A DNA stretch of 64,000 nt from Octopus vulgaris (lineage: Eukaryota). The notes under the pieces are model-generated. The model ran no database searches, was not told the origin of the DNA, and saw nothing but the letters and a program-made list of their open reading frames with translations. The position numbers and the translations under genes were made by a program. This document shows positions 15,782-57,350 of this stretch, one piece after another. Position 1 is the first letter of the stretch; each line of letters starts with the position of its first letter. The stretch covers positions 83,390,001 to 83,454,000 of the forward strand of contig OX597819.1 in the NCBI GenBank assembly GCA_951406725.2. Reading direction: 5' to 3'.

Positions 15782-16086
15782 GACCTGATCTAAGATCGTG
15801 TGCTGGAATGAAAACAATTGCAGCATGGAAGGTGTTTATAAGCCATTTAAGAAACACACAAAAAATGTTAGATTCACTTCAACATTTAAATTTGATTTGT
15901 CAAAATATTTTCGTCGCTTTAAGACCGTGACCTGTTCACTGACAAAATTCTGTCAAAAATGCAGCACAGAATGTTGTCAGTGAATAGGTCGTGGTCTCAA
16001 AGCGAAGAAAATATTTTGACAAATTAAATTTAAATCTAACAGTTTTTGTGGGTTTCTTAAATAACTTATAAACACCTTCCGTGCTG
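15782..16086. mobile_element. Palindromic Penelope-like insertion with TSD and one-sided 36-nt tail
   Basis: Inverted arms 15818-15953 / 15966-16089; direct repeat caaaagtagtgt at 15770-15781 and 16087-16098. Confidence 0.75.
15896..15946 (-). ncRNA. Minimal hammerhead ribozyme variant with G3-C8 core (second copy 15974-16022, +)
   Basis: UUUGUCA-GUGAACA-G-GUCAC-loop-GCGAC-GAA-AAUAUU-U-UGACAAA: 7-bp stem I and palindromic stem III. Confidence 0.6.
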
Positions 16087-16650
16087 CAAAAGTAGTGTAT
16101 TTTAACAGAAATATGGTAGCAAAAGGGTTACTAATAGAAATAGTAAAACTGAAAAACAAAAAAACCCACTCTTTCTCACACATAGGTAATATAAATCACA
16201 CTCAACAACATACTGGTCTTTGCCCATATCACTAAATCAAGTAAACAGCATGCAGCTGGAATTTCAACCTGTCAATTATTTAACTCAAACAAGATTTTCT
16301 TTTCTTTTTATTATAATTTTTATGGCATAGTCAGGGAAGGAATGGTAGTGCCTATGACCTTTTGCAGAGCCTCAGGGACTGGTAGGAAGAAAAGGAGGAA
16401 GTTATTTTCAGATTGGGGATCTGGCTCCAATGCTTGCAAAAGAGCAGAGAAGATTCAGCTAAAAGATAACCAAGTGCCAACCAGGTTATTGTGCTAAACA
16501 AAGTGACAGATTGAATCTACTACCCAAGAACAGGATTTATAAAGAAAAATAATGTTTATTCACTGAAAGTATAACTAACAAACACAAATGCATTGAACTA
16601 TCAGATTAATAGTTTAATTAATATCAAGTCATACGTTTTCATGACCAACA

Positions 16651-16855
16651 GATGATGATGATGATGATGATGATGATGATGATGATGATGATGATGATGA
16701 TGATGATGATGATGATGATGATGATGATGATGATGATGATGATGATGATGATGATGATGATGATGATGATGATGATGGATGGATGGATGGATGGATGGAT
16801 GGATGGATGGATGGATGGATGGATGCATGCATGCATGCATGCATGCATGCATGCA
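16651..16855. repeat. Compound microsatellite (GAT)n-(GGAT)n-(GCAT)n
   Basis: Directly visible; source of the poly-M/H/S/I ORFs. Confidence 0.98.
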
Positions 16856-17129
16856 GTACCAGGCAATGGCTCTCATAGTTTCTGATCTTAACTGATTGGA
16901 AGTGTTATCATGTACATATTTCGTTTTGGTATAAAAGATAGGCTGCAGCAAATATTCTGCTCAATACCACAGATTTACTTGTCAGTTGTTTGACCATTAG
17001 CACTTGAGCATGTCCCTTGGTGACTGATTTGTGCATCTCTGATCATGAGTAGAATTAGTGGGGGAGCATCATAGCCAAGTGTTGAGAGCAATTTTTGGAG
17101 TTTGAATAATTCACCTCTTGAAACAATGG

Positions 17130-53300: not shown

Positions 53301-55364
53301 AGCTAACATGGGATTAAACAACAACAACAACAACCAGTTCTAAAAGTTAGGTGTATATAGGCTGTCATCAGAGAGAAAGCCAATTACAAGCTTTTTTTCT
53401 TTTCTGCAAATAAAGTGAATTGTTTGCACAACCAATTGGAGTCAATCTCTGAGACATGTTTACTAATAAATAAATAGCTTAAAATGGAAAATAGAATTGA
53501 AGTCATTGAAATATCAAAGATACATGATGAAACTAATGAGAAGAGATTAGTGATTAGTCTAATTACTCTATTGTTTATTAACCATGTCATCATCACCACC
53601 CTCATCGTCGTTGTCATCATCATCATCACTATTTTACAACTGCTTTTTATTATTATTTTTTTTTGTATGCTTATATGGATTTGGATGGCTCTTACACCAT
53701 CTCATTATTGCTACTGCTGTCTGAATCATCTGGAACACACAGCTACGGAGAAGGCTAGACAATTTTGTAGTTGTGTATGGATTAAATTCATGATTTTTCT
53801 TTATCTTGCCACTGGTGCCAGATAAGTTGTTTACAGCTTGACTGAAAAGTCCTATTCTCATCTATCATCATCATTGCTTTAACAATCACTTTTTCATATT
53901 TGCAAGGGCCAGACAAAATTCATTGGGAAAGATTTTTTCATGACTTGTTTTCAAGAAAGGAAAATATCTCCCTATGAGAGAACCTGTTTTCATAGAAAAT
54001 TAGAAATGAATGATACCACTTGCATGATGGTGATGCTTGTTTACAACTATCATTTGATGCCAAGATGAAGGAAAACACACACATACACACACAAAAATAT
54101 GATGGGCTCCTTTCAGTTTCTATCAGACAAATCCACTTACAGTGATTGGCAGCATAGAGTGACACTAAATTTCTGCAATGCTAAGTCTATAATGGTAGCT
54201 GGATTTGTTCTTGGTTGTGGCACTTCATTCAATATATGTTTGTACCTATATTTACTAGCCATTATCTGTAACTTACATTTTTTATTAGGTTTTGCCAGGT
54301 TGATGTACCCTTGCCTTACAACATAAAGTATTAATAAGGGATCTTCTATGTAGTCATTCTACTTACAAGAAATATCAGCTAAATTTCTTTCAAATCATAC
54401 ATTCATCATCTTAAAAAAATGAAATTGAAAGGCATATTAGATGATTTAGTCTTAAATATCACTAAATAGATTAAATGGTTTTGATAATAGGTCTGCTTGA
54501 CCAAGATGTAGACAAAGCCTTTGCTGTGGGTTCCATGATCTTTTAAGTATTATAACAGGGTTTTTATTCACTTATATCTTTTATTTTGTTTCAGTCATTG
54601 GACTGCAGTCACTTAAGGGCACCACCTTGATGGGTTTAGTTGGACAAATCAACCCCAGTATTTATATTTCCCACATTTACTACTTATTCTACCTGTCTTT
54701 TGCCAAACTACTGAATTCATCATCATCATCATCATCATCGTTTAGCGTCCGTTTTCCATGCTAGCATCTGTTGGACGGTTCTACTGGAGTCTGTGAAGCC
54801 AGAAGGCTTCATCAGGCTCAGTCAAATCTGGCAGTGTTTCTACGGCTGGATGCCCTTCCTAATGCCAACCACTCCGAGAGTGTAGTGGGTGCTTTTTACG
54901 TGCCACCCGCACAATTACAGGATTACAGGAGCATAAACAAACCAACACAAGTTGTCAAGTGGTGGATGAGGTGGGAGACACAAAAGCAAACACAAAGATG
55001 TATATATATATATATGTCACTGCATGGAATTTTTGGCACCTTATTCTAAAGCCCAGGCTGATAAATGCCTTATCAGTGGATTTGGTAGATAGAAACTGAA
55101 ATAAGCCCATTCTACATTCATATGTGTGCGTATTTGTATCTATGTATATCTTTGTGTTTGTCACCCACTACTATTTGACAACCAGTGATGGTTTGTTGAT
55201 GTCCCTGTAACTTAATAATTCAGCAAAAGAGATTGATAGAATAAATATCAAGCTTAAGAAAATAAGTACTGGGATCAATTTGTTCAACTAAACCCTTCAA
55301 GATGGTTTCCAGGATGGCCACTGTCCAATGACTGAAACAAATAAGAAAAAAAAAAAGATATATA

Positions 55365-55800
55365 TATATATATTCTTTTACACATTTCAGTCATTTGACT
55401 ATGGCCATGCTGGAGCACCACATTAAAGGGTTTTTTATTCAAAGATATCAACCCCTGGACTTATTCTTTGTAAGCCCAGTACTTATTCTATTACTATCTT
55501 TTGCCAAACTGCTAAATTATATGAACATAAACACACCACCATCAGTTGTCAAGTGACGGTGGGGGGACAAACACTGACACAAAGAGACACACACATAAAT
55601 ACATACATACATACATGTATGTGTGTGTGTGTATGTATATGACAGGCTTCTTTCAGTTTCTGTTTACCAAATTCACTCACAAGGCTTTGGTTGGCCTGAA
55701 GCTTTAGTAGAAGACACTTGTTCAAGGTGCCACACAGTGGGATTGAACCCAAAACAACATGGCTGCAAAGTGAGCATCTTAACCACACAGCCATGCCTGA
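55365..55800 (-). mobile_element. Full-length family A SINE; another at 59750-60183 (-)
   Basis: Head + core + internal microsatellite + tail 'gtcaaatgactgaaa'. Confidence 0.8.
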
Positions 55801-56570
55801 ACTATATATGAGAATTGTAGATGGAGCATTGGATATGTTGTTGTCACTGCTGCAAATGTTGTTGTTTAATGCTAGGTCAGGTCTGATTGAGCAAACACCT
55901 AAAATCAATTTAAAATATAATCAATGAGACAGTTTTAACATTACAGTCCAGGTTTTTGTTATAAAATTGTATTTGAAGAGAAGAAATGTCAAATGACAAA
56001 ACCTTATTTTAACAGTTTGTAAATCATGTGCTAAAGTAAGGAAAATATTGAACATACACAACAATTTCATTAAAATATTCATTCAGAAACTGTACAAATA
56101 CTATAGTTGGCTAATCAATACACCAATACACTCTTTAGAAGTAAAATAATTTGGTAAAAACCAGAAACACATTATATATATATAAGTTCAGTAAAATTTA
56201 GGTTCCCCCCACTAGTAAATCTGAATAACAGAAATAAGCAGTGTCTTTTTTTTTTTTTGGAAAAATCTCAGTTACAACTGTGATGTTGTTGGTAAAACAT
56301 GTTCTTTGTCTATCTACTTATCCTCTTGGTGATTTTGGATAAAAAGAAAATTATACAAATGAATCCTTCGAATTTAACTAAATTCTATATTTTTATGCAG
56401 CTGAAGATTGCTCTACATTTTAAATTGATGTAATGTTTGCATTGTTCAATCAAATGGAGTCGCATGAAATGACCGTACTGCATTACCCCTGGATATCCTT
56501 GTTGCTTATTTTGATTATATATATATATATATATATATATATATGTGTGTGTGTGTGTGTGTGTGTGTGT

Positions 56571-57350
56571 AAATTAAGAATTGAAGTTAAACGCAGGTGT
56601 TTATTCAAATCTTTATACTTCCGACATATGTTTCGAAGAAAACATTGATATTATTCCGGAGAGAATAAAATGATGTAAAATAATGCAATCATCTCATCAG
56701 GGAAAAAAAGAGAAACAAAATACATCAATAAGCCATTTTAACTGAATGTGATTACCACATATATGATGAAGGGGAACACAGGCAAGTTATTTTTAAAAAC
56801 CTGTTAACATCAAAGGCAATTTAGAGAAAGAGAAGAAGGAGAAAGAAAGAAATTAACAGAAATTAATGGAAATAAGCCTAAAAGCATGGAAATAGATATA
56901 TTAATTTTCTGTTAATTTCTTTCTTTCTCTTTCTCTCTCTCTAAATTAACTTTGACGTTAAATCTGTTAATGGTTTTTTTAAAAAATAACTTGCCAGCGT
57001 TCCCCTTCATCATATATGTGGTAATCATATTTGGTTAAAATGGCTTATTGATGTGTTTTGCTTCTCTTTTTTTCCCTGACTAGATGATTGCATTGTTTTA
57101 ATTCATTTTATTCCCTCCAGAATAATATTAATGTTTTCTTCAAAACATATGCCAGAAGCATAAAGATCTGAATAACACCTGCGTTTAACTCCATTTCTTA
57201 ATTTATCTATGTTATATAAAAACATTTCACTAAACACTGTAATTTCTACCTTTATAAGTAGGGTGTAACATCCTTGGCACTTATGTGAATTTTTGCTACT
57301 CTGGTAACTATTTATTTATTCTTTCCGTATTATTTATACACATCGAAAAA
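56571..57350. mobile_element. Palindromic Penelope-like insertion (~300-bp arms) with right-side tail
   Basis: Arms ~56571-56867 / ~56899-57205, moderately diverged; TA/TG microsatellites on both flanks. Confidence 0.75.
56619..56704 (-). ncRNA. Hammerhead ribozyme with intact core and long stem II
   Basis: UUCC-CUGAUGA-G..~60 nt..C-GAA-ACAUAUGU-C-GGAA; the right-arm copy (~57071-57157) is mutated. Confidence 0.7.

Follow-up and report, generated by a model that had tools for sequence, protein, structure and literature searches.

We examined a 64,000-nucleotide window of the Octopus vulgaris genome (GenBank assembly GCA_951406725.2, contig OX597819.1, positions 83,390,001 to 83,454,000 of the forward strand; all coordinates below are counted from its first base), which contains five fold-back insertions, numbered E1 to E5 in order along the window. 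We propose that these insertions are 5'-truncated, head-to-head 3' ends (pseudo-long terminal repeats, pLTRs) of several families of Penelope-like elements and that the inversion likely arose separately in each of them, and we give this reading a probability of roughly 0.78. Membership in the Penelope-like elements, which we infer, is very likely. A first-pass annotation of the same DNA had also described Penelope-like insertions of several families with type I hammerheads, distinct from ordinary miniature inverted-repeat transposable elements (MITEs). This description is supported, as E2 and E3 are multi-copy and the target-site duplication of E1 flanks an asymmetric unit.

To measure the arms of each insertion, the left one was read outward and aligned with the right one. 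The alignment bore out the annotated layout of a palindrome with a one-sided tail for all five insertions (Table 1), with arms of 90 to ~1200 nt facing each other across spacers of 12-32 nt, and both outer ends of every insertion were element 3' ends. The two arms differed by 12 substitutions in 124 aligned bases in E1 (9.7%), and by 12.9%, 6.5% and 9.2% substitutions in E3, E4 and E5, respectively. The arms of E2 showed a single substitution in 1017 aligned bases together with 192 gap columns, the differences being nearly all in repeat length; 573 of the 1023 nt (56%) of its right arm are simple sequence. About 160 nt of extra internal repeat (about 26330-26490) were found in the left arm of E2 and were absent from the right arm despite the single substitution.

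Only E1 showed a target-site duplication, of 12 bp, and none was detected for E2, E3, E4 or E5. The final 3 nt of the right arm of E1 are at the same time the first 3 nt of this duplication, so that element and target overlap there. The window has 36% G+C and many microsatellites, and only 5% of its positions are 20 nt or less from a (TA)5 run. As had been annotated, four of the five insertions lie in a TA-rich microsatellite setting: (TA)n was observed on both sides of E2 and E3, on the left side only of E4, and at 28 and 21 nt from E5. The insertions had also been called unrelated, which holds broadly, with no cross-matches among E1-E5 by BLAST and only a weak similarity between the tails of E2 and E3 (p ~0.02, uncorrected, 20 comparisons per set). 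BLAST gave no additional full copy in the window, and a five-way alignment of the arms reached 35% column identity and yielded no usable consensus. A test for direct tandem pLTRs found none of the arms directly repeated in the window, the copies being too short to show such a repeat.

Hammerhead ribozyme motifs were searched in the window with Rfam, which gave no hammerhead match at the gathering score, and with a type I descriptor. A first version of the descriptor, which allowed up to 30 nt in stem II, missed E5. With an exact core, four matches were obtained in the window, namely both arms of E2, the left arm of E5 and a solo motif at 56401, while 4 of 30 shuffles gave one match each. After E1 had been seen, the descriptor was relaxed to accept every Watson-Crick pair at 3:8. 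It gave six matches in the window against a mean of 0.78 in 200 shuffles; four of the six were inside the elements, which occupy 6.1% of the window, and E1 had the top score. At a score of 12 or higher, five matches remained, four of them inside elements, compared with a shuffle mean of 0.15 (n = 200).

The E1 motif carries a G3:C8 pair in a swapped core, a bulge before G10.1-C11.1, a palindromic loop 3 and a predicted UUU cut site. Its stems I and II appear in the predicted fold, and the two arms jointly complete a 5-bp stem II. In E2, a 6-bp stem I is combined with a 3-bp stem III closed by an 8-nt loop and with a U10.1-U11.1 mismatch, a mismatch described as tolerated (PMC3088659). The predicted lowest-energy fold of the right E2 motif is a three-way junction, with a stability no better than that of shuffles (z -0.18). 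The E5 motif has a 5-bp stem I, a 59-nt stem II domain, a palindromic stem-loop III and a predicted GUC cut site, and the core in the right arm of E5 has decayed. Folding energies of the E1, E2, E5 and right E3 motifs were no better than those of shuffles (z -0.18 to -0.91) and are not used as evidence; the z of -2.5 for the left arm of E3 stems from a different long hairpin. Of the outward hammerheads that the first-pass annotation had assigned to all five insertions, those of E1 (with the swapped pair), E2, E5 and the E3 family stand, and that of E4 is not confirmed, as it has no valid core. AATAAA follows the predicted cut in three of the five insertions, at 16 nt in E2, 17 nt in E5 and 31 nt in E3, in agreement with the earlier remark that it follows the ribozyme in several.

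Further copies of the E2 and E3 families were found in public runs. Runs matching 27550-28340 came from four organisms and 9 studies and covered 0.07-0.31 of the query; no RNA run was listed among them. Contigs of 4 of the 24 listed runs were aligned to 27545-28052 at 80% likeness (n = 372, 436, 142 and 36, 986 in total), with 27743-27791 skipped as repeat, variants unphased, and variants near contig ends hidden. Among the variants listed, the E2 family had eight variable places in 27636-27688 and none in the ribozyme (27689-27742), and divergent relatives that differ upstream joined the family where stem I begins, at 27690.

In the E3 family, the majority letters in three runs supplied what the window copy lacks for a core: three of them are G, at positions 27917 (46-70% of depth), 27920 (63-98%) and 27942 (94-98%), and the fourth is C, at 27946 (95-100%). 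Together with U4 of the left arm, these letters give a full core and a motif whose stem I has 5 bp, whose stem II is short and whose stem III is near-palindromic, with GUA as the triplet; one E3-family contig directly carried a perfect core, at a different junction. Both arms of E3 carry the same three non-majority, ribozyme-breaking letters (27920/27851, 27942/27829 and 27946/27825), and the arms of E2 likewise have three non-majority letters in common. An AATAAA-like word at 27941-27946 arises from two of the non-majority letters of E3; the real AATAAA is at 27976-27981.

The tail end of the E3 family was fixed, as 36 contigs from 4 runs stopped 3 nt past 28050 and continued into (TA)n. Its arm-to-arm joints varied: at least four were found among the 986 contigs, short contigs being poor at showing palindromes, and those listed connect opposite strands at four different places (27847 to 27927, 27865 to 27974, 27878 to 27967 and 27904 to 27955), each in one contig and none at the junction of the window copy. 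Because the tail end is fixed and the arm-to-arm junctions vary, the fold-back was likely made anew at each insertion. Contig depth rose toward the E3 tail; it is not copy number, and it was not used as a sign of 5' truncation. No site with an accumulation of molecule ends was seen in these data, which consist of contigs only. Exact-pattern scans were empty for E4 and E3 in metagenomes, for E3 and E2 in prokaryote genomes and for E2 and E1 in viral contigs, collections that are not expected to hold animal repeats.

Drawing on published work on Penelope-like elements, we suggest that an element-encoded GIY-YIG endonuclease would nick both strands of an AT-rich target, and that each nick would prime reverse transcription of RNA derived from a single source locus. 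One start would be distal and the other proximal, with the offset between the start sites giving the tail. Both cDNAs would stop early, and their truncated ends would be joined across a short spacer. Such two-ended target priming is somewhat favored here because of the behavior of the purified Poseidon protein PAc of Anolis carolinensis, which nicks AT-rich DNA, extends both strands and has two start sites for its reverse transcriptase (RT), the tail being the offset between them (Frangieh et al. 2024, PMC11167929). Self-priming, in which a single cDNA folds back at small palindromes as proposed in PMC3846280, is a possible second choice. Since both E3 arms have the same three non-majority letters, they likely derive from one already damaged source template. 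The ribozyme is therefore likely dispensable for the insertion step, as a dead ribozyme likely did not prevent insertion, and for PAc ribozyme cleavage was unneeded for insertion in vitro (PMC11167929).

Several observations weigh against the proposal that E1-E5 are truncated ends of Penelope-like elements formed in this way. No RT or GIY-YIG domain was linked to any of the five in the window, the arms were without long reading frames except simple-repeat frames, and a Pfam scan of 14 of the 70 window frames detected no domain of Penelope type. No valid core was found in either arm of E4, where the remnant needs about 3 edits. Four of the five tails (56 to about 145 nt) are longer than the published 30-40 nt, and the near-palindrome at the E2 junction fits self-priming better than two-ended priming. 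Second copies are known here for the E2 and E3 families only, not for E1, E4 and E5. Because at most 0.31 of the query was covered, the matching runs may come from related species and the "majority" may reflect another subfamily. The letters common to the two E3 arms could have alternative sources, either a later arm-to-arm conversion or a rare subfamily.

The first-pass annotation had further regarded the families as non-coding. One form of this idea is a dedicated non-coding hairpin family, in which a Penelope-type protein acts in trans to mobilize a hairpin master copy as one unit. The 1.0-1.2 kb arm of E2 is non-coding and 56% simple sequence with no reading frame linked to it, and non-autonomous relatives are known, such as MRC1 of Chlamys (PMC8557442) and animal retrozymes (bioRxiv 10.64898/2026.07.22.740005). 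However, the E3 family has at least four other fold-back points, at least five contigs of run X1 run on upstream of 27906 with other sequence instead of folding back, and a coding element with a long non-coding 3' region would resemble E2, so that we regard the master hairpin as quite unlikely. The arms represent only the last 0.1-1.2 kb of an element, and the lack of frames in them is not proof of non-coding families, because truncated copies of coding elements would look alike. The claim of non-coding families is thus not supported. Nor is there support for the first-pass claims that such families routinely integrate as fold-backs and are probably mis-annotated as MITEs. A non-LTR retrozyme was considered as well and was rejected, as only inverted pairs and no head-to-tail tandem units were seen.

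The set may instead be mixed, with E4, and only E4, derived from a hammerhead-less family such as the Naiad clade, which is compatible with truncated, hammerhead-bearing Penelope-like ends for the rest. Beside the missing core of E4, Naiads lack canonical hammerheads, prefer (TA)n and occur in cephalopods (PMC8557442). A possible 6-bp stem I in E4 (37743-37748 with 37702-37707) frames the core-like remnant, and E3 is dead in both arms though its family core is intact; with these points on the other side, an origin of E4 in a hammerhead-less family is only slightly less probable than its opposite. Naiads are further marked by an N-terminal GIY-YIG and a CxC linker; E4 contains no frame, and its lack of a core is shown for this single copy. 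The window contains 42 matches with up to 2 edits, and the E4 remnant is thus not above chance. The untailed arm of E4 (37707, 37923) ends ~1 nt from the would-be cut of the remnant, which may be chance, as this end merges with TA.

Long inverted arms, a short spacer and high copy number are also what MITEs or Mutator-type fold-back DNA transposons with chance hammerhead-like words would present. The target-site duplications of Mutator elements are 9-11 bp long, close to the 12 bp of E1. The ends of the insertions are not symmetric, since in all five 36 to about 145 nt of tail separate one arm from the insertion end, and three of the four exact-core matches cluster in the arms. Copies of the E3 family agree at one end and vary at the center rather than having a fixed internal structure, and the E2 hammerhead has fewer listed variants than its flank. 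Such transposons are already contradicted for E2 and E3, and we consider them very improbable for the set. That E2 is an artefact of the assembly or library, produced by fold-back reads, as the near identity of its arms could suggest, is just as hard to credit: the duplicated segment ends exactly at the AATAAA of the element, with no flanking DNA inside, and the tail asymmetry is that of the four older elements (arm divergence 6.5-13%).

The layout is not new and has already been described (PMC3846280, PMC8557442 and PMC4209133). Arkhipova et al. (2013, PMC3846280) reported pLTRs in inverted orientation that meet head to head, with duplications of 8-10 bp and optionally a tail of 31 bp. Craig et al. 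(2021, PMC8557442) reported inverted truncated copies with a 30-40 bp tail and a (TA)n bias, as well as cephalopod Naiads without hammerheads. Curation hints published for such elements also include inverted pLTRs and short extensions (PMC8969392). E1-E5 resemble endonuclease-positive Penelope-like elements in head-to-head inversion, 5' truncation, a tail at one end, short junction palindromes, a bias to microsatellites or (TA)n, and a target duplication of variable length (8-10 bp there, 12 bp in E1). They differ in that both copies are truncated past any reading frame and no coding partner was found in the window, and only the 36-nt tail of E1 falls inside the published 30-40 nt. Naiads share the inverted truncated copies, the tail, the (TA)n targets and the presence in cephalopods (PMC8557442), and their lack of a canonical hammerhead excludes E1, E2, E3 and E5, not E4. 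Non-LTR retrozymes are alike in being non-coding, in their type I hammerhead and in a proposed Penelope origin (PMC7229834; bioRxiv 10.64898/2026.07.22.740005), whereas they form head-to-tail tandem repeats and the pairs described here are head-to-head without a tandem unit.

For the minimal hammerheads of metazoan Penelope-like elements, pairs of motifs on opposite strands have been noted, with 100-700 bp between them (Cervera and de la Pena 2014, PMC4209133). The motifs in the window share their type I topology, the short palindromic stem-loop III and, in E1, the bulge before G10.1-C11.1. Unlike them, E5 has a 59-nt stem II domain and E2 a 3-bp stem III with an 8-nt loop, and the pair in E1 is G3:C8, while the parts of PMC4209133 and PMC3088659 used here name U3:A8 as the natural covariant. 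A C3G/G8C double change partly restores activity in vitro (PMC11167929). PAc belongs to a coding element with a 34-nt tail and a frame that starts in stem II (PMC11167929), whereas no such frame was found in the window. No specific literature report was found on twin priming with Penelope or on palindromic non-autonomous Penelope elements.

Table 1. Positions of the five fold-back insertions, their predicted hammerhead motifs and further hammerhead motifs in the window.
Element	Feature	Positions	Strand	Remarks
E1	left target-site duplication	15770-15781		12 bp; exact repeat of 16087-16098
E1	tail	15782-15817	-	36 nt; left arm only
E1	left arm	15818-15953	-	reads outward
E1	predicted type I minimal hammerhead	15896-15946	-	G3:C8 swapped core; top descriptor match
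E1	right arm	15966-16089	+	spacer 12 nt
E1	right-arm hammerhead copy	15973-16023	+	decayed at positions 8 and 11.1
E1	right target-site duplication	16087-16098		
E2	tail	25451-25518	-	68 nt; abuts (TA)n
E2	left arm	25519-26721	-	mainly simple-repeat sequence
E2	left hammerhead	25536-25586	-	intact core
E2	spacer	26722-26734		13 nt; overlaps short near-palindrome 26721-26729
E2	right arm	26735-27757	+	terminates right after AATAAA
E2	right hammerhead	27690-27740	+	intact core; predicted GUA cut after 27734
E3	left arm	about 27784/27789-27873	-	untailed
E3	left-arm hammerhead	within 27789-27873	-	decayed
E3	right arm	27898-27987	+	spacer 24 nt
E3	right-arm hammerhead relic	27911-27949	+	no valid core in window copy; predicted cut at 27944
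E3	tail	27988-28050	+	63 nt; fixed end of family 3 nt beyond, then (TA)n
E4	tail	37651-37706	-	56 nt; abuts (TA)n
E4	left arm	37707-37798	-	
E4	right arm	37812-37923	+	spacer 13 nt
E5	left arm	56570-56867	-	untailed
E5	predicted hammerhead	56618-56705	-	intact core; descriptor match
E5	right arm	56900-57205	+	spacer 32 nt
E5	tail	57206-57350	+	~145 nt; outer edge from the first-pass annotation and the adjoining simple repeat
	solo type I hammerhead	56395-56483	+	exact core; 6-bp stem I, 58-nt stem II domain
	hammerhead 3' half	14615-14705	+	6-nt palindromic stem-loop III and GUA triplet, common to both halves
	hammerhead 3' half	28605-28625	-	6-nt palindromic stem-loop III and GUA triplet, common to both halves

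Other hammerhead-like motifs and inverted pairs were observed in the window. The solo hammerhead just upstream of E5 sits 33 nt before a (TA)n run and is probably the end of another Penelope-like family. For the hammerhead half at 14622, a decayed core was found 58 nt upstream. Isolated matches at 7542-7710 (+) and 50618 (-) have very long or weak stems and probably arose by chance. A sixth short fold-back at 29059-29166 has arms of ~54 nt and a spacer of 4 nt, its right end runs into simple repeat, and no hammerhead was found in it. Two older inverted pairs have longer spacers, 14059-14362 (208 nt) and 28230-28553 (58 nt), and the latter adjoins the hammerhead half at 28621. The inverted pairs at 32429-32858, 40785-40870 and 55040-55713 were not counted as members, as they resemble neighboring dispersed repeats around microsatellites that are similar to short interspersed nuclear elements. 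Relics among the frames at 12730-13035, 17356-18456 and 35898-36209 gave a DDE_3 fragment at 12730 (E 2e-10) and a weak RVT_1 match at 35898 (E 5e-4, below the cut-off) in Pfam, neither of which is linked to the five insertions. Two frames among these relics, with no Pfam match above the cut-off, are presumably similar to long interspersed nuclear elements.

The finding mainly adds unannotated families of a published layout, and the differences from published cases are small, namely tails of more than 40 nt in four insertions, a G3:C8 core in a single copy and the long stem II domains. It is unlikely that several Penelope-derived families of this genome are truly non-coding, insert mainly as tailed hairpins and carry little-described ribozyme variants (G3:C8 in E1, a long stem II in E5 and at 56401). 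If true, the long family-specific tails and many junctions would provide a large natural data set on two-ended target priming versus self-priming; the origin of inverted Penelope-like copies is still an unsettled question (PMC8557442, PMC11167929). Short hairpins of this kind are plausible candidates for filing as MITEs or unknown repeats, and the main text of a recent repeat annotation of Octopus vulgaris does not mention hammerhead, ribozyme or palindrome (PMC13282606). The ribozyme-killing changes that are private and common to the two E3 arms would lend genomic support to the in vitro result that cleavage is unneeded for insertion. No natural G3:C8 core was found in the literature searched, which included part of PMC3088659 but neither the survey of Lunse et al. 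(2017) nor supplements. Such a natural core, if true, would widen the known range of hammerhead cores.

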